Positions 1 through 21,682 of a stretch of DNA of 64,000 nucleotides are shown piece by piece. A model generated the notes under the pieces. It made no database searches, was not told the DNA's origin, and saw only the letters and a program-made list of their open reading frames with translations. The stretch lies in contig CM120643.1 in assembly GCA_051362555.1 (NCBI GenBank), positions 26,416,848 through 26,480,847 of the forward strand, written 5' to 3'. Source of the stretch: Lingula anatina. Lineage: Eukaryota; Animalia; Brachiopoda. Position 1 is the first letter of the stretch, and each line of letters begins with the position of its first letter. A program made the translations under genes and the position numbers.

Positions 1-140
1 GAAAAGTGGTTTCATGGGAAGCTTGAGGGTGGGCGACGTAGAGCGGAGGAGCTATTGAACGAGTACGCAGTCCTCGGCGACGGCACATTCCTAGTTCGAG
101 AAAGCGACACATTTGTCGGTGATTTTTCCCTCTCCTTTTG
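1..140 (+). CDS. PLCG1: PLC-gamma nSH2 N-half exon, variant A (5' end outside window)
   Basis: [47 protein letters not shown]; donor TG|GTAAGT at 140/141, phase 2. Confidence 0.95.
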
Positions 141-3100
141 GTAAGTCCCAGCGCCCTCGTTGTCTCCCCTTTCTTCCTAGCATGGCATGGAGTTTGACAC
201 TGTGTATTAATGTTACCCTTAGGTTAGGGAATTGCATTTTTCCGAAGAGTGGTACCATGACTATATTCGAGGAAACGGGTCACGCCAGACCGCTGAGAGC
301 CTCTTGATTCAGTGGGGACCTGCTAAAGGCGACGGAACTTTCTTGGTCCGCCATAGCAAGGAGTTTGTGGGTAGTTTTACTCTGTCGTTTTGGTATGTAT
401 AGGCGTTTGATTGCATGGTGAATTTGATGAAGTGAGTTATTTAGAAAGTTAGATGACACTTTATTGCTTGCACCATTTGGTGAGTCCGGATTTAGAGTGG
501 AATGTGTCAGTCACTGTGTGCTGCACTCTTTTTAAAGACCACTTAATATAGCTGTCTTGTATGCCGTAGTTTAATATATTGACTGAAAACTTGTTTTGTA
601 GTCCATGTATTACATTTTGTTTTGTTTTTGTTTTTAATTTTTGAAGTGCTGTGTCCACTTCACACACTGATGTATTGTTTGTTTCATGAAACACCATGTG
701 ACAAAAGAGCACAATTTAATTGTTTACTTACATATTGATATTGGTTTTTGTTTAAAGTAAAAGACTCTAATCTGCTTATTGCTTCTTGTTAGATATAATC
801 TAAGTAAGTTGCTCATGTGTACTGTGTGTGATCTTATATGAAGTAACAGTCTGAATGTAAGAATTATAACCTACAATAATCACTCATGTTTCTGAAGTCG
901 CCTATTTTAAGTTGTAAATTATAAAAAGAAATGTAGTTGCAAAAAGTTTTTGGCTCACCTGTCAGGAATAACTAACAAAAATTAATTAACCTTAAATTAT
1001 CGGCCTTGTTCAAGCTTATATTAGTGAGTTATTTTTATAATCTAGGGCTTTTGTAATCAAACAGCTGTCATCTTATGATTTATGCTTTCATAAATGAAGA
1101 ATTATGGCAAATAAAAATTATCTCTGTAACACTGTTCACTTCTAAGATTTATACTTTGTTAAGAATCTATACCTGTTAACATCAACTGATAGCTGAGCTT
1201 TAGCTTACTCCACTTAATATTATTGCTATTACCTATTTTATCAATAAATTACCTACTTACATTCTTTGCTGTGTATTTGAGGTATTTCTTGTAATTTATC
1301 TGCTTGTCTTGTATACATTAGTCTTTTTCAATATTTCCTCGAAAAAACTATGGCAGTGTTTCTCTCATTTCTCTTCATCTGATTAACACAAGATGATCAG
1401 TAAAAAGTTCACTAATAATTTCTTCCTCAGGCGTCAGGGGAAAGTGAACCACTGTCGTATCAAGTCCCGTCAAGAGCGCGGCGAGATCCGCTACTACTTG
1501 ATAGACAACGTGCTGTTTGAAAGCTTGTACAGTCTGGTCACATTCTACCGTAATAACCCCCTGCGAAGTCAGGACTTTGAAATGATCCTGGGGGACCCGG
1601 TTCCTCAGCCCCAGAGTCACAAAGGACAGAAGTAAGTTTGCTGTGTAGTATCATAGTTATTTTAATGGTGTTATTGTAATGAGGTAAATGAACCTTTCAG
1701 AGCTAGATTTTCTTGGATTAAAGAGCATTTATTAAAAATTGATTGAATTTTTTAAAAGTCAGATTAATTGTTACTTTTATAAGTTATGCCTGCTTAAGTT
1801 TAAAAATGCGTATTTTGAAAATGATTTTGATAATTGCAATTATGGTTACGTTCACGGGTAGTCATCGGAAGATGGAAAAGAAGATTTACCTGACTAATGA
1901 TGCCATGAAACTTCATAATGTGTATACGTTCTATTTTTCAGGCAGCACCATGAAGGCATTCTTTAAATTTTTTCTGTAGCATATTCTATACACCCTGTAT
2001 ATCAGAGTTTACTGAGGACTTCTATTATCAATAGACCATTGCCATCTCCAGTGACAAGAAATAAGTCACTGGAAATGGCAGATGTATGCTGATAACAGAG
2101 GTTTTACCATACTAGGATGATGTAAATCAAAGACCTTGACATCTTTTTTAAACTCGGAGAACTTTATTTGGGTTTGAACACCTTGAGGACCCTATTTGAA
2201 TTTGGCACCATGAGCCTTCCATTTATATTTTGCAGCTTGAGGGAACCATTTAAATTGGGTACCATGAGAACACTGTTTTTTTTTTTTTTTTGCATCAATG
2301 CATCATAATAAGTTTGTCTATGTTTTAGATGGTATCATGAAGGAATGGACCGCGCCATTGCAGAAGACATGTTAGCACGCATTCCTTTCGACGGAGCTTT
2401 TCTTCTCCGCCACAGTGAATTTGATTCCTCTTCTTACGCCATTTCCTTCAGGTGAAGACAGCCCCTGCACCGTGCAATGGTGCATGTGAATGTGCATTTG
2501 CCGGCATCGTAGAACATTTGCATGACCCAGTTGTCAAGAATTGACAGTTACTTTTGTTATTATTGATACACATACAGTGCATGGTGCCGTGATGATGCAT
2601 TTTTTTTTACAATTTGAATCATTTTAGTACACTGATGGTTGCTGATTTTTGGGAAAACAAAACAAAAACACAGGGGGGGGGGTCTGCAATGAATGAATGA
2701 ATTTCAAATGTGTTATTTTGGATAATTCAAAAACCTGTCCTCTTTTCAGTGTTTAGTACAACTAGATGTTAACTTGAAGCTGACCATATCCTTTCATGTG
2801 CTCATTAAAGCATCTAAGATGTTTCATGTAAGAAATATGTTTTCAAGGATTATAAAAAAAATCAGCTTTCCATAAAACTATCATGGAAATGGCCTGCTAT
2901 GAGTTGACCTAGTACTTATGTTCATTTGGCATGATGTAGGTTGACCAACGTTTGTTTTTGAGTGATGCAAAGCAGTAGAAGATGGATTTCTGTGTGCGGT
3001 GTGCGTGTGTGCATGCGTGCAAAGATGCATGCAATGTAGGAGCACCAATATACTGGAGTTTGTCTCTTTAAAAGAAGAAAAACAAGTCACATCCATCCAT

Positions 3101-6100
3101 TCTCCAAAGTGAAGGGAGCGAGATCATGTCATTTTGTGATTTGTCTTCTATTATTTTGCATGTAGTACTAACCTTTGTTGTTTCTCAGATGGTACCATGA
3201 GGCTCTGTCGCGTGAAAAAGCTGAGGACATGCTTAGTCGTATACGTTACAATGGTGCATTCCTCGTGCGCAAAAGAAATGTCGCAGGCAATGACACCGAG
3301 GCATCCCAATTTGCGATTTCATTTCGGTAAGTGGGATAAACATCCCAGATAGGTATTCCCATTATATATATATATATATATATACTAACATATATGTAGT
3401 TGTTGATGTGCAATCATTAATGTGATATTTGTAGATGGTATCATGAGAATTTAACGCGAGAACAAGCTGAAGACATGTTATGCAGAATTCCATACAACGG
3501 AGCTTATTTGGTCCGGAAGCGAGTAGAAGCATCTGACAAAGATGAGTTTCAGTATGCCATCTCGTTCAGGTAAACGATGAGAAGTTAAGTGCCATCACTC
3601 CGCAGCTTCATATCTCGCCAGCGGCCGGTTTCACAAAAAATCTTTGGACCAGAATTGGTCTCTTTGAGCCCAAATTTTTCTACCTTGCTTTGACTTTATG
3701 TAAAGCAAGTGAAATATTGTATCTTTTGTATATAAAGATGGATTATTTAAACCATAAGAGGCTTTATTTTTGAGAAATATACTACAGATATATTTTGAAC
3801 TGGCGAAGACCAACATTTTCAGCCTGAAACCAGCCCGTGGCCTAGACGCTCATTGGATTTATTATGCTGGTGTTGATTATGTTCATTTTGCTGCTGTTGT
3901 CATGCCTCGCCAGTGTGAAATAGATTGTTTCATCCAATTATTTAGCAAAAAAAAAATTACATGTTTTCGATGAATTTTTCTTCATCTTGTGCCTTTTTTT
4001 GCATTGATGTGAGACATTAAATTTCTGCTTTTTGCTTGAGTAATTTAAGAACTGCTTGTTAAAAATCTAATGAATGCAATCATTATGGAGTATTTCTCAT
4101 TAAAAAAAAACATCTCTGATTCTGTATGTGTGCCTTGTAGTATTCCAATTTTTATGAATGTTATTTTTTGGAGATAAAATAACACCTGAAATAGCTCCAC
4201 AGCCTTGGTTGCATATGTTATCTATGTAATACACCAAGCTAAGCTGACACTTACTGCATGAACGCTATAAGCTTTTTATTTGTGAACATAGAAGCTAGAT
4301 TGTTATGAGACACTGAGTAGAGATTCCCCCTGCAAGTTTGTTGTGTTGCTCATAAGCCAATTTCTCTTTGTAATGATTTTTAAATGAAATGATTCCTGTT
4401 TTTTGTACAGTTGAAAGATTAAGCATTGTGGTATTTCATTGCAATTATTGTGGAAAAATTACTGTTTGAAATGACATTTGAACACATGATTTTATTTTTG
4501 AATGACGTATCTTTGTGTTAAGTAATGGTTACCAAAATGATGTTTTTGAATAAATTGAAAATTATTAAAATCTGAAAACAATTAACAAAATAAAATAAAA
4601 TGTAAAAATGAATTAACTTGTACATAAAGAGTATAACATGCATTTCAGTCTATTTTCATTACTATTCAACTAAATGTTAATGGCTTATTTGCTCTTATAT
4701 TTGCACAGAGCTGAGGGAAAAATCAAGCATTGTCGTATCAAGTTGGAAGGTCGTCTTTTCACCATCGGCAACGCCCAGTTTGAGAGCCTTTTGGAATTGG
4801 TGCAGTATTACGAAAAGAACCCTCTCTATCGCAAGATGAGGTTAAAGTACGCTGTCAATGCTGAGCTAGTCTCACAGATAGGAATGGTAGGAAGACATGA
4901 GATTATCATTGTTATTATAGTATGACCAGTTTAAAGAGCCTTACCACCTGGAGTCATAAAGTTCAGTTTTATACAGTTTATATATGACAAAAAATAATAA
5001 AACTTTATAAGCAAGTTTTGTTGTATTGACTTTAGCCTGTGATGGAATAATATTGAAGAAAAAAGCATTTTATATTTTAATGTTATACTTAAATGCTTAA
5101 TATTATTCACTTGAATGATATGACATTCATGCTTCACTTTTTAATATTTTCTTACAGCATTGGCAATATGTGTCTGGCTTTTCATGCAGTCACCTTGGCT
5201 TTTTTTCTGTATTTTCAGATTGCCACTTTCCTTAAGTTATGAGGATAACAGGTGTGCTTGATTTAGTTTCAGGTTTTATCTTGATTTTAGCACTGTTCGG
5301 AACATGAAGACTAGTGGTGAAAATTTTCTTAAGAAATAACAAAAGAAAAGCTGCTCAGGGGCTTCTTAGGTCATCATCAAGGTTTACACTGTTTTGACAG
5401 CCAGTTTTGATGTGAAATCACCTACATACATTTAGAACATTGTAGTCATTTCTTTCTTTCTGGAAAACCTACGAGACCCTCTAAATCTGCCCTTGTTTTG
5501 ATTGCAAGAACATCTGCCGGGGTCCAATGAAATTTCAAACACTGTTCCTCTGTGTAAGCCATTTTTTAATAATTAGCTAAGCTTCTCTTGACAGGAGCCA
5601 GATGCCAATGCCATCTATGGTTCTGCAGATATCTATATGAATCCTAATGACTATATGTCTAAGGTAATAAGCCCTAGGTTTCCATAGCAACTGCTGCATG
5701 GCCCACCACCTTGGCTTATTTTTTGCTGACAGATTTTTTATTTTGGATTTTTTTCTCTAGTCTTAGATATCCAGGGTTGCTGTTCTGATCTTGCCTCTTT
5801 CTCTCTCATTTCTTTTGTTCAAGAAACACTGGCTTACAGCTTTAAAGATTTACAGAGTTCAGATATCTGTAACAAAATTAAACTGGCTCGGCCAAACAAA
5901 ACGTATACGGACACTTTTTAAACTGATGTAAAGAGAGAGAGGGGCAAGATGAACATTCCTTATCAAGCTCATGGGAGAAAAGAACAACATTTAACAAAGC
6001 AGAATTCTGAATTTTGACTGACAAGAGTTTTATTTTAAGTCCAAATTAAACTGCGATTTCCTGCTTTGTTAACATGTTTTATCTCCTTGCATAGTGAATG

Positions 6101-8201
6101 GTTTGATTACAGGGCAAGAGGCATTTTTCTTTTTCTTTGATTTTGAAATTAGCAGATTTATAGAAAAGAGCAATAAATTTGTGTTTGTTTTGATTGCCCC
6201 CCCCCCCCCCCCCCCCCCCCCATCAAATCCTATCAGTGCATGCCACAAAGTTCGTACATTTAAGCTTTTCCTTTACCAAGCAATGCCCTGGTCCCTCCCC
6301 CCCCTCCCCTCTCTGGAGGCAACACCCAAAACAACACACTTTCAGGTGAAATTTTTATTACCCCTTGGTTACAGTGGCTTTCACAGCAGAGAACACCATT
6401 CCTGAGTAATCCTCTTGATTTGCATGGCGCAAAATTACATATTGGCAATTGTAGCCCTCTTGTGATTTTTCACAGTGCATTTTTTTCCTGCATGACATTT
6501 TTTCCTTTCATTTTCCCCCCGTCCTTAGGACCCGCAAATGGAGTCCATTTACGAAGGTAACTCGTATGCTGATCCCAACGAGTTGGAGTTTATCACAAAT
6601 GTGAGTTGGTTTTGGTGCTTTTATCTCCCGAGTTTTTGTTAACGGAGAATAGGGGTGCTGTTTTCAGCTTGTATCTTTGCTTGGTTTTCCAATTTAAGAT
6701 ACACTAGACGATGTTTTTGTTATTCTTTTGCTTGATTTTGCTCTTGGGCTGATTTTAGCTGTAAATCTCAAAGTGAAAATGTGACATAAAAATGATTTTG
6801 AAGAGACTAAGGTATTTTGGTATTACATAAAGAAAGATAAGTTGTACATAAATATAAATCAAGAAATGCATACATAACATACATAGAAATGCATATCTAG
6901 TTTGAATATCAAATATTATTTATTAACAGTATCATTGGTTGAACCTAAATCTACATTATTATTCCACTGTGTTCAAGGTCAAAGTGAAGGCCCTGTACGA
7001 CTATCACGCACAGCGAGCAGATGAGCTGTCCTTCTGCAAGCATGCCATTGTCAGCAATGTCCATAAGCAAGATGGTGGATGGTAAGACTTTTGTAGATAT
7101 ATTGTTCTTTTTAAGCATTGATTTGTCATCACATTACCTGTGATTTGAAATTTTTATGGAAGAGAAACTTTGCTAAAATTACTTTTGAGTTGTATTCATC
7201 TATACACTCTAAAAATTTGTCATCAAAATGAAACAGTGCATGTCATGTACCAATACGGCCATGAAGCAAAATTTCCCCATATACATATAGAATGTTGAAC
7301 TGTTAGATTCCTGTTAAGTACAAACTTAATTTACAGCACAAAAAATGAGTAATAAATTGATTAAGATTATAATTATTCAAGACTGCCGGCCACTGAGTAC
7401 AGTGTGTCTTCTATTTGACATTCCTTCAAATTATCTCACCACCAGGTGGCGTGGTGACTATGGTGGAAATAAACAAATGTGGTTCCCATCAAATTATGTG
7501 GAAGAGTTGGAGATATCCGAGGATTCTGATTCGACGCCCCTGGGCTCACTGCAGAAGGGCATGCTGGAAGTGACCTGCTGCATTGTGGGTAAGTGCATGA
7601 CGTACAGATGAATTAAGTTAAGGGTTTGGATATATCTGGATATTTGGGTATTGTATTTATGTTCCCAAGACCCCCCACTCCCCCTCAAAGACACATGCAT
7701 CTTCAACACTTGGATTTTCCAGATTTTTTCTAAATGGTCCACTTTCATCTCTGTTTATATCGTGTTGTAGAAAAATCAGAAGTAAATTAATAGGGAAAGT
7801 GTTTGGATTTGATAGAACCTAAGGCATGCTGTATTGTCCTTGGTTTGTAAAATGTTAGAGAAAAAGAAACAGGTGAATTCTTTGACTGGTTAGCTATCCT
7901 GCAGGTTAAAGATATCACTTGACCACCTGTGCATGTTTCACAAAATGAGTTTTGGTTAAAAACAGAAATAATATTATTTAAACAATGAAGCAATACCTAA
8001 TACTGTTGACTTGCTCTTTTCAGATAAAATAGAAGGTGGCAAGGGCTCAAAGCAGTATGTATTCCGTGTGATCTCCAACGGCACGCCTCTAGAGATTGCC
8101 GCCAGCAGCGAGGAGGACATGTTGGACTGGATGAAGGCCATCAAGGATTGTGCAAATATGGCGGAACTTAGGGTATGGTGGCCCAAAAAGTGCCAGTTGG
8201 A

Positions 8202-8251
<50 letters not shown>

Positions 8252-11200
8252 ATTAGCCTACACTTTCATTTTAATATGCTAGGAACTTTAAGATATTTCA
8301 CTTGAAGTTACACTTCATCTTTGTAATTAATAGTGTAAATTTATTTATTTATTTCAGAGTAAAGAGCATGCAGACCAAGAGAGAGCTTTAAGGATTGCCA
8401 AAGAATTCTCTGACATAATAGTTTACTGTCGCTCAGTGCCTTTTAATGAAAGCAGTAAGTTATACAAGGAGACAGAAATGTACTCTAAGTTGTCAAATCT
8501 ACTTCCTAAGTCTTAGTTCTTTTGAGGAGGACAAAATACCATTATAGTCTAGTAATTATCAATTGACAGACATTTTGGATTAAAATATTTGTTTATATAT
8601 TACTGTATATATATATAACCTCAAACTTTAAAAACCTTTAATACAATGGAAAATTACTGACATCCACACAGAGAGAGAGAGAGAGATAGAGAATCCAGGT
8701 GTTGGAGAGATAGACCCTTACTAACACACCTAGAGATGTTGACCTATGGATACCTAATAATACAATGCCACCATTTTGTGATATACATTACCCATCATGT
8801 TCTCTCTCTCCCACAGATGTCCCAGGGAACTACTATGATATACATTACCCATCATGTTCTCTCTCTCTCCCACTCAGATATCCCTGGGAACTACTATGAT
8901 ATACATTACCCATCATGTTCTCTCTCTCTCTCCCACAGATATCCCAGGGAACTACTATGATATACATTACCCATCATGTTCTCTCTCTCTCCCACTCAGA
9001 TATCCCTGGGAACTACTATGATATACATTACCCATCATGTTCTCTCTCTCCCACTCAGATATCCCAGGGAACTACTATGATATACATTACCCATCATGTT
9101 CTCTCTCTCTCAGATATCCCAGGGAACTACTATGATATACATTACCCATCATGTTCTCTCTCTCCCACTCAGATATCCCTGGGAACTTTTGTGATATACA
9201 TTACCCATCATGTTCTCTCTCACTCAGATATCCCAGGGAACTACTATGATATACATTACCCATCATGTTCTCTCTCTCTCAGATATCCAAGGGAACTACT
9301 ATGATATACATTACCCATCATGTTCTCTCTCTCTCAGATATCCCAGGGAACTACTATGATATACATTACCCATCATGTTCTCTCTTACTCAGATATCCCA
9401 GGGAACTACTATGATATACATTACCCATCATGTTCTCTCTCTCCCACAGATATCCAAGGGAACTACTATGATATACATTACCCATCATGTTCTCTCTCTC
9501 CCACAGATATCCAAGGGAACTACTATGATATACATTACCCATCATGTTCTCTCTCTCCCACAGATATCCCAGGGAACTACTATGAAATGTCCAGCTTCTC
9601 AGAGACCAAAGTGGAAAAATATGTGAACAAACTGAAGGGCCAGACCTTCATGAAGTATAACCAAAACCAGCTGAGCAGGATTTACCCCAAAGGTCAAAGA
9701 ATCGACTCTTCCAATTATGACCCCACCATGCTGTGGATATGTGGGTCACAGATGTGTGCCCTAAACTACCAGACACCAGGTGAGTTCATTGCTTGGGGAG
9801 GGGGGAAGAGTTGGTGTCAGAGAGAAGGGAGCAGGATATTGGGCTCCGTAAGGGATACTGTTCTCAGAGTGGGGAAGGGGTGCCAAGGAGGGAGTTACTG
9901 TTCATGTGATCATAATTTTTAGTGGAAGTACATAATTATCAGTCACCAAATGGGTTAGATTGTTGGTCTCCAAGTTGGGGATTCAGCAGAGTTGAACATT
10001 GGGGATGGTTGGGGATTGCTTTTAATTTTCAAAATATTTTGAGGCAGCCAGTCCATTGCCATCAAACGTGGCAGACATTACATGTTTTTTTCTTTAACTT
10101 GTAAACTTCAGTTGATGCACACTATGCTTTTACGTATTTCTAATCTCATTTATCCCCTTGTAGATCGTTCTATGCAGCTGAATGAGGGGAAATTCAAACA
10201 GAATGGAAAGTAAGTACAACAATCTTTTATTTATTTATTTATTTTTCATTTTTTTCCCTGTATTAGCAATAATCATGAAGTAGACATAGGTGTTACAAAA
10301 TGGTTGAGGAATGTGGCATTGGGAATGAAGCTCTGTTGTCATTAAGTGTATATAAGTTAGAGGTGTAGATATCTATAAATATTAAATATATTTATTGGCC
10401 TGTTCATCGGTGTAATTGTTTGTAACAGGATATTTAAGTTTATTAAAATATTGAAATATATTCAAATATTAAAAATTAATGGCTTAACAGGTTTTTCCAC
10501 ATGCTAAAATATCATAATGTAACAACAAAGGTGAAAGGACTGTTTATCGGGTTGCTTTGTGATGATGCACAACAGTTCAGTTATATTTATGAGATGTATT
10601 TTTTTTTTTTTTAATTTTTCTAGTCTAGTGGTTATACTCCAAGTTTTCTCTTCTTTTTTAAGGTGTGGTTACATTCTCCAGCCAGAAATCATGCGACACA
10701 TCGACTACGACCCGTTTGACAAACGGACACTTGTCAATGTAGATCCCCTCACAGTAACTCTAACAGTATGTTAACGTTTACAACTGATATTTTAAAATAT
10801 CAAACTTTGTTACATTGAGTAAATTGGTATTTATGACCAATTCTTTTTTAGGCTATTTACAGTAACTGTTGACTTCATCAAATCATAGAAGTTATGTTCA
10901 CTGTTGTAAGATAAAAGGATGGTCTTGAAAGGATTATGATAGTGGGTTTGTTTCAGTTTTTAAAGTTTTGGGTAACATTGGAGTTTAAAACATAAGAGAA
11001 AAAGAGATCACTTTACTTGAGATTACTGGTCTTAGTGAACCCTGTATCTGTCTTGAAGCACTGTAATAATAATTTTGTAAAGTAACTCTCTGTGGAAACC
11101 AGCTTTAAGATACATATTTTTAATATTTTGTGATTTATTTACTAATTTATGTACTAAATTTTCAGATCATAGGAGCCCGTCACTTAGTCAAATCTGGCCG

Positions 11201-14200
11201 CGGGATTGCCAGCCCATTTGTAGAAGTGGAAATATGTGGAGCGGAATTTGACAATGGAAACAAATACAAAACTAGAACAAAGGGTAAGAAAATAAGTTGT
11301 ATGAAATGAAAGTTCAGTGTACCTACAACTGCAGGTACGCTGAACTTTCATTTCATACAACTTATGTAAAAATACTCTGAATTAAAGGTGTCATTTTAAA
11401 AACCAAAATTTTAAATGATTCATCTGTCAATTGATACTATGATTTTGGCAAATCTTGTTTGTTCAGCACTTTGATCATGTCATACCAAGGCCCATAGAGT
11501 GAAGTATGACTTGTCCTCTAAATAAACTACATTATGTAGACATGTATGTTTGTACTAGTATATATGTAACTAATGAGTGGACAGTGGTTTCAAGTCAATG
11601 TAGAATGACTTGTATGAGTTTTACATAGAATTTTGGTCCAGGCCCAGTGAATCACTTGTCTTGTTGATTATATTAAGAACAACTGGTCATGAAGAAATGC
11701 TATGTTAGATATAACATTGACCATGTATCTTCTCTGTAGTGGACAATGGTTTTAACCCAGTGTGGAATGACCAGTGTGAGTTTGACATCATCAACCCCGA
11801 GGTGGCCATGATAAGGTTTGTGGTCCAGGATGAAGACATGTTTGGGGACCCTAACTTCCTCGGTCAGGCTTCTTTCCCAGTCAAGAGCATCAGACCAGGT
11901 AAGTTTCTGATCAGAAGATTGTCTGGGCTGATATGAATGGATTATATGAATAGCATTATTTTGCAATAGCCAAGTTGCCAAAAAATTGGGGTAAAATTTT
12001 ATTTTTCAATTTTGTGTAAAAAAAATGTTGTAATAAATTGTTCTAGTTTTTAGAAAAATATTTTAAATTTTCTTAAGCACATGTATATTTAAGGATTTTA
12101 TTGGGATTTCAAATACAAGTTTGAGCATAGATCTTGTAATTCTGATTATGAAAGATACTTCCAAAACATGCTTGACCGTCCAAATTGGTAATTCTGATAT
12201 CACAGATATATTATAAAATAACAGTCCTTTTAGTTCACTGCAGGAAAAGGTCCTTTAGTATAGTTATGTAAAGGCCTTTCTATTCTAAGAGGATATCTTT
12301 TGTTATGCCCTTTACTTGATCCATGCCAAAACTTTATAAATAAGTATGTTGTCATTTGTATCAACATTTGAATTATAATATGTGATATAGAATTCGGTTA
12401 CCGGTCAGTCCCACTGACCAATGGCTACAGTGAACCCCTAGAACTGTATTAAGTATAATATTTATATTACGTTACCAGGTTACCGGTCAGTCCCACTGAC
12501 CAATGGCTACAGTGAACCTCTAGAACTGTATTAAGTACAATACATATATTATGTTACCAGGTTACCGGTCAGTCCCACTGACCAATGGCTACAGTGAACC
12601 CCTAGAACTGTATTAAGTATAATATTTATATTATGTTACCAGGTTACCGGTCAGTCCCACTGACCAATGGCTACAGTGAACCCCTAGAACTGTATTAAGT
12701 ATAATGTTTATATTATGTTACCAGGTTACCGGTCAGTCTCACTGACCAATGGCTACAGTGAACCCCTAGAACTGTATTAAGTATAATATTTATATTATGT
12801 TACCAGGTTACCGGTCAGTCCCACTGACCAATGGCTACAGTGAACCCCTAGAACTGTATTAAGTATAATATTTATATTATGTTACCAGGTTACCGGTCAG
12901 TCCCACTGACCAATGGCTACAGTGAACCCCTAGAACTGTATTAAGTATAATATTTATATTATGTTACCAGGTTACCGGTCAGTCTCACTGACCAATGGCT
13001 ACAGTGAACCCCTAGAACTGTATTAAGTATAATATTTATATTATGTTACCAGGTTACCGGTCAGTCCCACTGACCAATGGCTACAGTGAACCCCTAGAAC
13101 TGTATTAAGTATAATGTTTATATTATGTTACCAGGTTACCGGTCAGTCTCACTGACCAATGGCTACAGTGAACCCCTAGAACTGTATTAAGTATAATATT
13201 TATATTATGTTACCAGGTTACCGGTCAGTCCCACTGACCAATGGCTACAGTGAACCTCTAGAGCTGGCTGCCCTTCTGGTCCGGGTGGACATGAGGAACC
13301 CAACTGTATGTATTGATTTTATAATATTCATCATATCTACTTTTAAACATGAGAGTTCTAATGCTATGAAGTCCAGTTCAATTTAAGATAAACACTTGGT
13401 TTAGTAAACACTAATTTCAGTAAATAGTAGTCACAGCTGTAAAAAGAACAAGTCTCTGGAATGTATAATATTAGGTTCAGCTGAACCTAGCAAGTCTTCA
13501 CTGCAGACACAATTAAAATTTTTATGTCATCCAAAAAAACATATTCTTTCTTTTCCTTTCCAGCAAAGTACAGATAGTGACATCTATGCCTGTATTCAAG
13601 ACCTACGAGATCGTTCCCAGGAGCTTCACTACCAGATTGCGGAGTCAGAGCGAGTTGGAAACACAAGAGAAGCAGAGGAAATAAAGAACAAACTGAAACA
13701 AACCGAGGAAGAGCTGATTCAGAGAACAGATGAGAGGCATCGGATCAACAAACAAAGGTTTTAGTTCTTACTATATATTTATTTATTTATTTTAATGTGT
13801 TTATTTTCATTTTAAATGATTCTGGATGAATTATGGCACTAACAGGTAGATGTTGAACAAGGTTGCAGTGGATAAAATACCTGGATAAAGGGAATTACTG
13901 ATTATTTATTTGTTTTGTGTCAAACAAAACTGAACAGCAAAAAATTGTATATTTTAATGTACGAACACTTATTAAAATGTGCGCACTAAATTTGTTGTGC
14001 GGTGGTAAAAGCTACTTCAGAAATGTAAAAATGTAGCCTGAATAGAAAAAGTCCAGTCCCTAAATTATGAAGTTGATGTGGTGTCCCATGTATCTTCTTT
14101 ATACAAAAGATTGTATTTTGAATATTATATTCAATGATTCTGTTATAAATTACACAAAGTACTCATTATTTTGTGCTTGGAACATGAAATGAATGCATGT

Positions 14201-17783: not shown

Positions 17784-17786
17784 GCA

Positions 17787-18593
17787 ATGGATTCAGATGG
17801 AATTAAACAGCTGGCAGATGCTATCAGACAACAAACCCTGGACATATATCAAGGTTCTACAGTGCAAACAATATCAGCTGTTTCATTTAAAGCACCACCA
17901 TTTTGGAACACAAACGCATCTGCTTGGTTTTTACGTCTGGAATCATCCTTTGCAACACACCAGCCAGCCATTACAAATGACTTGACTAAATTTCATCATG
18001 TAGTGCAACTCCTGGACTCATCAACCTCCAGACGTGTTCAGTCAGTAATTGAGAGACCACCTCAGACAGGAAAGTATGAAGCACTAAAGCATGCACTGTT
18101 AGAAGCCTATGAAGCCACACAATACCAAAAGGATACAGCATTACTTAATATAAATGGTCTAGGAGACAAACGACCTACGGAACTATTGATGCATATGCGC
18201 TCTTTAAATGCAGATCCAAGCACACTTTTTCGCACATTATTCATCAATCAGATGCCAACAGAAGTGAGACGGATTCTTGCACAATCACTAGAAGTTGATC
18301 TTGACACCTTAGCTAAAATGGCTGATCGGATTTTAGAAGTAGACCCTCTTACCCCTTCTTCAATTTCTATGACTACCACAGTGCCTGAAGAAAATCTTAC
18401 AACAATAACTGATACAGAAATAAACGCCATGAAATCTCAGAACCAACGCACTGGCACTATCAAGTTCAAATTATGTAAATATCATCCATGGTTCGGACAT
18501 AAAGCCAGGAAATGTGAACAAATCATCGATGGCTGTCCTTGTCCAATGTCTACACGAAGACAACAGGGAAACGACAAAGCCAGCAGAAATTAG
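17787..18593 (+). CDS. gag: Retrotransposon Gag
   Basis: 268-aa ORF with KAPPFW..WFLRLESSF and a C-terminal CxxH...C...C motif (CKYHPWFGHKARKC..CPC). Confidence 0.93.
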   Translation: MDSDGIKQLADAIRQQTLDIYQGSTVQTISAVSFKAPPFWNTNASAWFLRLESSFATHQPAITNDLTKFHHVVQLLDSSTSRRVQSVIERPPQTGKYEALKHALLEAYEATQYQKDTALLNINGLGDKRPTELLMHMRSLNADPSTLFRTLFINQMPTEVRRILAQSLEVDLDTLAKMADRILEVDPLTPSSISMTTTVPEENLTTITDTEINAMKSQNQRTGTIKFKLCKYHPWFGHKARKCEQIIDGCPCPMSTRRQQGNDKASRN

Positions 18594-21500
18594 TGAGCAC
18601 TGCTGGTCTATCTGATGCTCCACAAATTTCTACGATCAATATGGGGACAATCACCGTTTCTGATATTGTCACTGGGCGTACTTTCCTTGTAGATACAGGA
18701 GCAGAAGAATCCGTTTTTCCTGCTAACCGATTTGACCGACAACGAACCAGTGGCCCAAGTCTTATTGCAGCAAATGAAACAAAAATACCTACTTACGGAA
18801 AAAGGAAGATGATTTTAAAACTAGGGAAAGGAACAAAATTCACTCAAGAATTCTGGATAGCTGACGTCACACAACCCATTCTAGGTGCTGACTTTTTCAC
18901 TACTCATCGTTTGGCCATTGACCTTTCCAACAGAAAGTTAATCTCATTGGATGGAAAAACGGTCATTCATGCTCACCTCACTAGATCTCAGCAACAAGGG
19001 ATTCACAAAGTTCACACAAGATACGAAGCAGTATTAGAAAACTACCCGGAGCTCTTAGTGTCATCCTTTAAGGAAAATAAACACGGAGTAGAACATCACA
19101 TCCCAACCGTTGGATCTCCAGTTAAAGCCAGAGTACGTCGTCTTGACCAAGAAAAGCTCACTGCAGCAAAAATGGAATTCAAGGAAATGGAGAATCTGGG
19201 GATAGTGCGTCGTTCCTCTTCACCATGGTCATCTCCTCTACATATAGTGAAGAAAAACAATGGTGGCTGGAGACCTTGTGGAGATTATCGTCGACTTAAT
19301 GACATTACCATAGACGATCGTTATCCTCTACCTCATATACAAGATCTCAATTCATCACTCAATGGAAAGACAATATTCTCTAAGATCGATTTGATTCGGG
19401 GATATCACCAGATACCAGTTGCCAAACATGATATTCCTAAGACTGCAGTCATCACACCTTTTGGACTTTATGAGTTCCTTAAAATGCCTTTTGGGCTTAA
19501 AAACGCAGCACAGGCGTTCCAAAGATTAATGGATGGCATTCTACAGGAACTTGACTGTTGTTTTGTGTATCTTGATGACATTTTAATAGCAAGTTCCACA
19601 CCTGAACAACATGAGGAGGATCTTAAAGCAGTTTTCAACCTGTTAAGGACAAATGGACTTGTTATTAACAAGAAAAAGTGTGTATTTGGACAATCTGACG
19701 TTGAATTTCTAGGTCATTCAGTGTCTGCAGCTGGAGTTCAACCACTTGCAGAAAAAGTGAAAGCAGTAGCAGATTTTCCACCACCCAAGGATAAAAAAGG
19801 CCTTCAAGGATTTCTGGGAATGCTGAATTTCTACCATCGTTTTCTTCCTGGAATCGCACATCGAATAATACCTCTTACTGAAGCTACCAAGGGCAGAGCC
19901 AAGACTTTGCAGTGGACCCCTGAATGCCAATTAGCATTTCAGGATGCTAAAATGGCTCTTGCTTCTGCAACTATGCTTCATCACCCTGAACCAAAGGCAG
20001 CAACCAAGATATCAGTGGACGCTTCTGACGCCGCAATAGGAGCAGAACTTTCTCAGTTTCAATCAGGGATGTGGAAACCTATTGCTTTCTTTTCTAGAAA
20101 ACTCACACCTACCCAGAAACGATACTCCACTTTTGACCGTGAGCTTTTGGCAATTTACAGTACCATCCGCCATTTCAGATATTTTTTGGAGGGAAGACCA
20201 TTCACCATTTTCACTGATCATAAACCTCTCACTTTTGCGTTCAAGAGTACATCTGACAGATCACCACGTCAAGAGAGACAATTATCATTTATTGCTGAAT
20301 TTACAACTGATATACGACATATCAGTGGAACTGATAACATTGTCCCAGACACTCTGTCCAGAGCCCCAGTGGAAACTGATGAGCCACTTATTGCCTCCAC
20401 AGCTACAATGCCGACAATTGACCTTACACAGTTAGCAGCATCACAAAAGACTGACACAAAGATGGTTGAACTGTGCGCCAATCCAGGATCTTTGAAGTTA
20501 AAGGAAGTCATCTTTGGTGAGGTTAAACTTCTCTGTGATACAACTACCAGTCGACCTCGGCCAGTAGTTCCACCTTCAATGACGAGGATCATTTTTGAGG
20601 CAATACACAATCTTTGTCATCCTGGAACAAAACCAACAATCCGTGCCATTTCAAGTCGTTATGTCTGGCCTGCACTCAAAAAAGACATTCGTAATTGGGT
20701 AAAATCTTGTCATGCCTGTCAAACAAGTAAAATTGGACGTCACACTAGAGCACCGTTAACCACCTTTGATCCACCAGATAGACGATTTGGTGATATTCAT
20801 GTTGATTTGGTTGGACCTCTTCCTCCAGAAAATAACAAATATCTTCTGACAATTGTTGACAGGTTTACAAGGTGGCCAGAAGCTGTACCTTTACCGAATG
20901 CAGAAGCAGTTACTTGTGCCAAAGCTCTTTTATGCTCATGGATATCAAGGTTTGGTGTTCCAGACTCCATCACATCAGATCAAGGTAGACAATTTACAAG
21001 TGAACTTTGGCGTGAGCTTAACAAGGTGCTTGGCATTCAACCTAACACAACAACAGCCTATCATCCACAATCCAATGGCATGGTTGAAAGATTTCATCGC
21101 AGATTGAAAGAAGCCCTCAAAACACGTTTAGACAATGCAAGATGGATGGACCAGTTACCAATTGTATTACTTGGTATCCGGTCAACATGGAAAGAGGACA
21201 TTGATGCATCACCAGCACTTCTTACCTATGGTACAAATTTAAGAGTACCTGGTGACTTTATTCCGAACACAACTGATGACAAATTTTTTCCTAACAATGA
21301 ATTTGTGCAAGAACTTCAACAAACAATGCAGAAATTGGCTCCTGCTCCTCCATCTAGACATGGGCAGATTGGTACATATGTACCGTTTGACTTGCAACAA
21401 GCTGAACATGTATATGTAAGACATGATGCTCATCGAGGTACATTGATTAGACCATATGATGGTCCTTACCTTGTCATTTCACGTTCCGACAAATATTTTG

Positions 21501-21682
21501 ATATTTTAAGGAATGGACAAACAATTCGTGTCTCAGTTGACAGACTTAAACCAGCTTATAACAATCCGGTTTCAGTGCACAATCAGACAGTGAATCCACA
21601 AACAAAACCAGAGACATGTCTTTCACCTTCTTTAATTAAAACACGTTCCGGTAGAATAGTTAAAAAGCCGGAAAGATTTTAA
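18566..21682 (+). CDS. pol: Retrotransposon Pol (protease, RT, RNase H, integrase), probably made by -1 frameshift
   Basis: LVDTGA protease, MPFGLKNA and YLDD RT, VDAS..DRELLA..TDHKPL RNase H, HNLCH..CHAC zinc finger, HVDLVGP/SDQG/GMVERF integrase, GPY motif; overlaps gag in the -1 frame. Confidence 0.96.
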   Translation, partial: GKRQSQQKLVSTAGLSDAPQISTINMGTITVSDIVTGRTFLVDTGAEESVFPANRFDRQRTSGPSLIAANETKIPTYGKRKMILKLGKGTKFTQEFWIADVTQPILGADFFTTHRLAIDLSNRKLISLDGKTVIHAHLTRSQQQGIHKVHTRYEAVLENYPELLVSSFKENKHGVEHHIPTVGSPVKARVRRLDQEKLTAAKMEFKEMENLGIVRRSSSPWSSPLHIVKKNNGGWRPCGDYRRLNDITIDDRYPLPHIQDLNSSLNGKTIFSKIDLIRGYHQIPVAKHDIPKTAVITPFGLYEFLKMPFGLKNAAQAFQRLMDGILQELDCCFVYLDDILIASSTPEQHEEDLKAVFNLLRTNGLVINKKKCVFGQSDVEFLGHSVSAAGVQPLAEKVKAVADFPPPKDKKGLQGFLGMLNFYHRFLPGIAHRIIPLTEATKGRAKTLQWTPECQLAFQDAKMALASATMLHHPEPKAATKISVDASDAAIGAELSQFQSGMWKPIAFFSRKLTPTQKRYSTFDRELLAIYSTIRHFRYFLEGRPFTIFTDHKPLTFAFKSTSDRSPRQERQLSFIAEFTTDIRHISGTDNIVPDTLSRAPVETDEPLIASTATMPTIDLTQLAASQKTDTKMVELCANPGSLKLKEVIFGEVKLLCDTTTSRPRPVVPPSMTRIIFEAIHNLCHPGTKPTIRAISSRYVWPALKKDIRNWVKSCHACQTSKIGRHTRAPLTTFDPPDRRFGDIHVDLVGPLPPENNKYLLTIVDRFTRWPEAVPLPNAEAVTCAKALLCSWISRFGVPDSITSDQGRQFTSELWRELNKVLGIQPNTTTAYHPQSNGMVERFHRRLKEALKTRLDNARWMDQLPIVLLGIRSTWKEDIDASPALLTYGTNLRVPGDFIPNTTDDKFFPNNEFVQELQQTMQKLAPAPPSRHGQIGTYVPFDLQQAEHVYVRHDAHRGTLIRPYDGPYLVISRSDKYFDILRNGQTIRVSVDRLKPAYNNPVSVHNQTVNPQTKPETCLSPSLIKTRSGRIVKKPERF

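Follow-up and report, generated by a model that had tools for sequence, protein, structure and literature searches.

The gene for phospholipase C-gamma (PLC-gamma) in the brachiopod Lingula anatina carries two exons for the linker between the C-terminal SH2 domain (cSH2) and the SH3 domain, each encoding its own version of the segment that bears the activating tyrosines. The 3′ part of this intron-rich gene occupies positions 1-14,000 of the plus strand of the stretch analysed here (64,000 nt of contig CM120643.1, assembly GCA_051362555.1; hereafter the window, whose numbering is used throughout). Linker exon A (5595..5663) and linker exon B (6529..6600), on the plus strand like all other exons and introns given below, arose by tandem duplication long ago, and the RNA examined contains one or the other of them; the pair is real, expressed, ancient and apparently undescribed. 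The account that we favour, with moderate confidence, adds that Rbfox likely chooses A, probably together with one particular variant of cSH2, and that both linkers would use one shared pocket, the switch tuning the enzyme and not fitting a key to its lock.

Results

A tandem pair of linker exons

A preliminary description of the window had located the two linker exons and taken them for interchangeable equivalents of the segment around Y775/Y783 of PLCg1, and on both points it is borne out by the alignment and by RNA reads joining each exon to both of its flanks. The exons measure 69 nt (A) and 72 nt (B), are bounded by AG and GT and have the same phase, 0-0. Of the 26 open phase-0 AG..GT segments that lie between 4887 and 6977, no others look like linkers: the two exons have linker-likeness scores of 65.8 and 40.2, against 14.5 for the next non-overlapping segment; a third linker exon was looked for in the window and none was found. 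Adjacent as they are, the two are also homologous: their similarity score is 29, compared with 9.4 ± 6.1 for shuffles, of which 30/5000 reached that value, and the tyrosines of B align one to one with those of A. The pair of tyrosines is 6 apart in A and 5 apart in B, and the residue that follows the key phosphotyrosine (pY+1) is Met in A and Ala in B, a difference already remarked on in the earlier description.

RNA reads were drawn from eight of the nine listed runs (6-30% of each), and a joint was listed only with at least 3 reads in one run. Both linkers are joined to both constitutive neighbours, namely the exon ending at 4886 and the exon at 6978..7081, which starts the SH3 domain and provides the acceptor common to A and B. 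Linker A is supported by 7 reads from 4886 and 6 reads to 6978, linker B by 37 and 18 reads, respectively; A is the minor and B the major form in these runs. Both exons are thus expressed, and no joint from A to B and no joint skipping the two was listed in the eight runs, whose depth is low. The joints of A are listed in the first read set only; in the second set, of four runs, all have depth in the bin that contains A and none has a row for its joints. Among the differences between reads and exons that were listed, 42/44 are silent, the one in linker B included.

Equivalence to the vertebrate activation tyrosines

Both linkers hold the activating tyrosine pair that is characteristic of the cSH2-SH3 linker in PLC-gamma. 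Alignment to solved structures matches the tyrosines of linker A to Y775/Y783 of PLCg1 and to Y753/Y759 of PLCg2, which have been termed analogous sites (PMC7004563). PLCg2 is the nearer match, since Y753/Y759 have a spacing of 6, read Y-V-D-P and are followed by Pro at +3. The tyrosines of PLCg1 are 8 apart, and its key site reads Y-V-E-A-N. The Y.[ND]PN pattern that the preliminary description regarded as shared with the human protein is therefore not that of vertebrate PLCg1. Functional work on PLCg1 has shown that the enzyme remains autoinhibited without its activation loop and that the cis binding of pY783 has an affinity in the nanomolar range; the cooperation of the second site (Y775/Y753) is called an open question in the same paper (PMC7004563).

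Conservation and age of the linker pair

Among the cluster members listed, ten mollusc groups besides chiton combine one type of cSH2 with both types of linker (the group labels of the Logan cephalopod and P0270 bivalve clusters were assigned from a named member or from the tree). Mollusc linkers fall into two types that separate 20/20 by leave-one-out, and A precedes B in every mollusc model that contains the two. The A linkers have a spacing of 6 in 7/8 of those with both tyrosines and carry Met, Ile or Val at +1; the B linkers have a spacing of 5 in 8/8 and His at +1 in 9/10. Linker A of the window is clearly of type A, with a score of 70.5 for mollusc A compared with 47.8 for mollusc B.

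A pattern scan covered 27 of 32 metagenome loci, and 12 were examined for linker exons. Both exons, A then B, are found in the genomic contigs L001, L002 and L010. Thin trees place L001 within Lophotrochozoa (0.91), its phylum being left open, L010 with heterodont bivalves (0.96) and L002 beside the window protein (156 columns). One linker exon across the whole interval is seen in L006 and in the coral-type contigs L015, L016 and L018, and the listed models of hemichordates, echinoderms, amphioxus, arthropods, corals and sponges likewise have one linker. Since two linkers occur in molluscs and in the three contigs, and one in the models of the other animals, the duplication is most likely to have happened early in Lophotrochozoa.

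The linker region has also varied in other ways. The single linker exon of L006 (L006:2812) is of mixed type, with a spacing of 6 and His at +1. Venerid clams have a third linker-like exon and one Mytilus model an extra divergent segment (proteins P0166, P0168 and P0188). The first tyrosine, equivalent to Y775, has been lost from linker A of Octopus and Mytilus and from linker B of Octopus and of the P0270 cluster (P0147, P0195 and P0270); the second is retained throughout, including where the first is lost.

Alternative cSH2 halves and a predicted shared pocket

The N-terminal half of cSH2 is encoded by three alternative exons. Exon A (2329..2451; 6 reads to 4709, upstream joint not listed) has a short BC loop and Ser at the position of R696 of PLCg1. 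Exons B (3189..3326; 36 reads in and 30 out) and C (3435..3569; 12 reads in and 14 out) have Arg at that position and BC loops that are 5 and 4 residues longer, respectively. The C-terminal half lies in the constitutive exon 4709..4886 (178 nt). In PLCg1, pY783 touches R675, R694 and R696, and its +1/+3 residues are seated in pockets formed by F706, L726, L746 and Y747 (PMC3532599). Counted from W668 in the alignment, the equivalents of R675, R694 and F706 do not differ among the three alternative exons, and those of L726, L746 and Y747, which belong to the pY+1/+3 pocket and the EF and BG loops, are located in the constitutive exon. The variants differ at position 696 and in the BC loop, and the variable positions are accordingly placed where they would affect the grip on the phosphate; they would not help to tell Met from Ala.

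This arrangement bears on the suggestion, made in the preliminary description, that particular cSH2/linker pairs act as lock and key. As structural chemistry, this would mean that each cSH2 variant binds solely, or much better, its own linker and that mismatched isoforms are poorly activated. The differences at the R696 position and in BC-loop length lie beside the phosphate site and would suit such a scheme, as would single annelid models in which a short cSH2 is accompanied by an A linker (Chaetopterus) or a long cSH2 by a linker of spacing 5 (Owenia, Paralvinella), and the chiton models, in which the short cSH2 is found only with linker A (3/3). The residues that read pY+1/+3, however, do not differ between the variants, F706 being invariant and L726, L746 and Y747 constitutive. 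Moreover, L001 has one long-loop cSH2 N-half exon, between short and fully read introns, together with both linkers; the ten mollusc groups likewise use both linkers on one cSH2 type, and contig L024 joins a short cSH2 to a B linker. When all chiton models are counted, three are short with A, three long with A and two long with B (Fisher p 0.46). A one-to-one co-occurrence of cSH2 and linker types is thus not found across L001, the ten mollusc groups and chiton, and we regard lock and key in this structural sense as unlikely. In a tree of the cSH2 halves (40 residues) the long forms come together only weakly, and a search with the cSH2-B exon returned only 7 proteins and no new cSH2/linker pairings.

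The sequence pYxN is the consensus for the SH2 domain of Grb2. It had been pointed out that linker A alone has a YxN motif and a third tyrosine; this is correct for the window, and as an A-specific feature it is not conserved elsewhere. YxN follows the key tyrosine in 10/10 mollusc A linkers, as in that of the window, and both linkers retain Pro at +3 and Asn at +4, which could be read as a sign that the duplicate is functionally redundant, or that its main role is to switch the docking of other SH2 proteins, for example Grb2. The motif has nevertheless been lost from linker A of L001 and L002 and is present in the B linkers of chiton and L002, so that it is not specific to A, and the third tyrosine of the window exon is Phe in 9/10 mollusc A linkers and Leu in one. 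Redundancy is hard to reconcile with the distinct spacing and +1 residues that the two types have kept across molluscs, and the nanomolar cis binding of pY783 (PMC7004563) would leave little for a competitor. We consider both versions of this explanation very improbable, more so than lock and key.

TGCATG elements in the two A-B introns

How would one linker be chosen over the other? The intron between linkers A and B (5664..6528, 865 nt) contains four copies of TGCATG (5695, 6237, 6421 and 6489), compared with 0.26 expected, and that between cSH2-A and cSH2-B (2452..3188) contains six (2481, 2519, 2578, 3010, 3026 and 3157), compared with 0.94; neither count was reached in any of 1000 shuffles (0/1000 for each). 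TGCATG is the top non-homopolymer hexamer of the two introns taken together (10 versus 0.71 expected, Poisson 4e-9, or about 2e-5 after correction for 4096 hexamers), and the other 16 intronic stretches of the gene hold 5 copies. The layout is the same in both introns, with elements past the donors of A (at 30 and 32 nt) and ahead of the acceptors of B (at 32 and 40 nt). An element at most 50 nt before the acceptor of linker B is present in 4/4 loci, which represent about three independent lineages, versus 1/34 other acceptors; the cSH2-B acceptor of the window, which also has one, was left out of this control count, and the sole exception is a copy in L006, 22 nt before the SH3 acceptor.

Rbfox typically activates exons from downstream and represses them from upstream, with exceptions noted (PMC11874969), and in Caenorhabditis elegans it represses exon 5B of egl-15 via an upstream UGCAUG (PMC3585155). 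The introns of the window gene present the corresponding arrangement, in which UGCAUG is enriched in the flanking introns and lies downstream of the putatively promoted exon and upstream of the putatively repressed one. On these position rules, Rbfox likely picks linker A over B and probably co-selects cSH2-A with linker A. In the first read set linker A (7/30) and cSH2-A (6/29) are both minor and at similar levels, and in the second set both fall below the listing threshold; such similar shares fit a shared regulation and do not prove it. The reads are 150 nt long, shorter than the 178-nt exon that separates the cSH2 halves from the linkers.

The linkers could also be regulated and distinct, and yet be chosen independently of cSH2, with the two motif clusters acting in different cells or with different co-factors. 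Linkers still alternate where a lineage has just one cSH2 exon, which fits such independence, and the outcome of Rbfox action on C. elegans unc-32 depends on tissue-specific partners (PMC3585155). Against it stand the identical layout of TGCATG in both A-B introns, the near absence of the motif from the other introns of the gene and the similar levels of the two minor forms. We give independent choice a lesser chance than co-selection, though a better one than lock and key.

Other devices for exclusive splicing were considered and rejected. Pairing of the docking-site/selector kind does not exceed background, duplexes as good as the best ones being formed in 16, 6 and 5 out of 20 shuffles, and inverted repeats between introns were sought and none was found above shuffles. 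Exclusion by frame shift and nonsense-mediated decay does not apply, because both linker exons are multiples of 3. Steric hindrance, which calls for a branch point near the donor of the upstream exon, does not apply either: the A-B intron of the linkers has 865 nt and the AG-free zone before B is just 51 nt.

The rest of the gene and its surroundings

One database protein, P0001, is identical (100%) to the window exons and is alone in its cluster. It has the full PLC-gamma domain set (PF00388, PF00387, PF00017, PF00018 and PF00168), that is, a split X/Y catalytic domain with an SH2-SH2-SH3 insert and a C2 domain, and the best PDB matches are PLCg1 and PLCg2. A quick tree of 38 proteins places P0001 inside Lophotrochozoa (support 99) and outside Mollusca (100), leaving its position relative to annelids and nemerteans open. 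P0001 is built from the first exon of every duplicate group, linker B being absent from it; since it is the sole database protein and represents the minor form, the main isoform is unannotated there.

Upstream of cSH2, the N-terminal half of the first SH2 domain (nSH2) is also encoded by alternative exons, A (1..140, cut by the window edge; 34 reads to 1431) and B (223..392; 9 reads to 1431, with one TGCATG 20 nt downstream), which precede the constitutive exon for its C-terminal half (1431..1631). Both this exon and the one that starts SH3 are covered by RNA reads. Three clusters of duplicated exons (nSH2 half, cSH2 half and linker) are thus found within 7 kb of one gene. Within the first cluster (window 1-392), nSH2-B has strongly diverged around the phosphate pocket, which would alter receptor docking. 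Echinoderm models from the Diadema and Apostichopus clusters (P0124, P0125 and P0179) also have alternative nSH2 half-exons, which suggests repeated exon duplication in this region. A 22-nt stretch behind an AG at 4413-4434 shares 86% identity with the beginning of the constitutive exon of cSH2 and is possibly the relic of a decayed exon copy.

Two tandem arrays downstream multiply splice acceptors. At 8779-9585, about 14 copies of a 55-nt unit repeat a pyrimidine tract, a 3′ splice site and the opening bases of the exon for the Y box, and the final copy alone runs into that exon, behind a row of decoy acceptors. At 12396-13266, 10.6 copies of an 82-nt unit (97% identity) repeat an acceptor along with the beginning of an exon for the C2 domain. 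Reads of runs X1 and X2 match a short intronic stretch at 7627-7659 and are loose at both ends; they probably stem from a repeat that is expressed elsewhere. Outside the gene, two long overlapping plus-strand frames at 17784-21679 (269 and 1054 codons) resemble, by eye, the gag and pol of a long terminal repeat retrotransposon.

Discussion

The favoured account can be put together as follows. Rbfox bound after the donor of A would promote A, and Rbfox bound in the pyrimidine tract of the B acceptor would repress B, as its position rules imply. Given these rules and the motif layout, Rbfox-positive cells are predicted to combine cSH2-A and linker A, whereas linker B would go with cSH2-B or cSH2-C in other cells. 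By analogy with PLCg1, phosphorylation of the second tyrosine would let the linker bind cSH2 in cis and free that domain from the C2 domain. Both linkers are predicted to use the same cSH2 pocket, and the switch would tune the kinase input and the activation threshold. To judge from the pocket, the hydrophobic pY+1 of the A type would fit better than the Ala, Thr or His of the B type, and the extra Arg of cSH2-B and cSH2-C may alter the grip on the phosphate irrespective of the linker.

A number of observations weigh against this account. Read counts are low and a joint had to reach three reads to be listed, so that rare forms with both linkers or with neither may hide among the transcripts of Lingula. 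In relatives, models with A and B together occur in 8 mollusc groups and include 2/10 Logan cephalopod proteins, which are probably cDNA, although many of the models are predictions; models that skip the linker are found in 2 groups, Haliotis (1/10) and Octopus (2/14). Strict exclusivity, with never both and never neither, is therefore not general. Linker B of the window is only weakly of type B by score (33.2 against mollusc B, 29.9 against mollusc A), and the case for its orthology is made by where it lies, by its tyrosine spacing and by the motif upstream of it. The TGCATG motif was noticed after the fact, being first seen at the acceptors of L001 and L002 and then counted, and these two contigs are close relatives, which is why the four loci amount to about three lineages. 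Whole-intron counts are not enriched in L001, L002 and L010 (1, 1 and 3 copies), the motif is near 2/5 linker-A donors only, the cSH2-C acceptor has none nearby, and the constitutive intron 7589-8023 also has 2 copies (4/1000 shuffles). Repression from upstream is, moreover, the weaker of the Rbfox rules (PMC11874969).

In a bolder form, which we put forward as a conjecture with somewhat less than even prospects, one Rbfox programme would swap the phosphotyrosine loop together with the phosphate-binding half of cSH2, giving two cell-type-specific modules. The linker switch would go back to the ancestor that molluscs share with other lophotrochozoans; the double-linker and linker-less forms would be additions made in molluscs. 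The linker-less forms would be deaf to phosphorylation, because PLCg1 without its loop stays autoinhibited (PMC7004563). If this is true, a single splicing factor coordinates the intramolecular ligand of an enzyme and its receptor, and one lophotrochozoan gene has found in splicing a counterpart of the vertebrate PLCG1/PLCG2 duplication. Two loops with differing tyrosine spacing and pY+1 residues, on a shared pocket and kept across a superphylum, also offer a natural test set for the determinants of kinase choice and activation threshold.

Have these exons been noticed before? We found no published description of them in the accessible portions of the literature on PLC-gamma alternative splicing, on molluscs and on tandem exon duplication, and PLCG goes unmentioned in the available main texts of two surveys of tandem exons, although their supplementary lists could bear on this.

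Several known systems resemble parts of this one. In docking-site/selector systems of mutually exclusive exons, one of several tandem duplicates is likewise chosen (PMC6071210), whereas the introns of the window show no pairing above shuffles. In C. elegans, egl-15 (5A/5B) and unc-32 (7a/7b) have UGCAUG by the acceptor of one duplicate exon (PMC3585155). The repressed acceptor of egl-15 is that of the upstream exon; in Lingula the motif precedes the downstream exon, it does so in two clusters, and Rbfox binding is putative. FYN offers a likeness in protein terms: its tissue-specific forms FynB and FynT differ in a regulatory linker beside the SH2 domain, which is exchanged through mutually exclusive duplicate exons (PMC9741552); in the PLC-gamma gene the swap covers the activating phosphosite itself, and three clusters are found within 7 kb. 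The vertebrate PLCG1 and PLCG2 linkers, finally, have the same location between cSH2 and SH3 and the same two tyrosines, with linker A reproducing the exact spacing of PLCG2, and exon 19 of PLCG2 (residues 646-685; PMC11606444) corresponds to the cSH2 half that is triplicated in the window gene. Vertebrates have two genes with one linker each, in the sequences examined, whereas in Lingula splicing exchanges the linker, as well as one half of each SH2 domain, within one gene.

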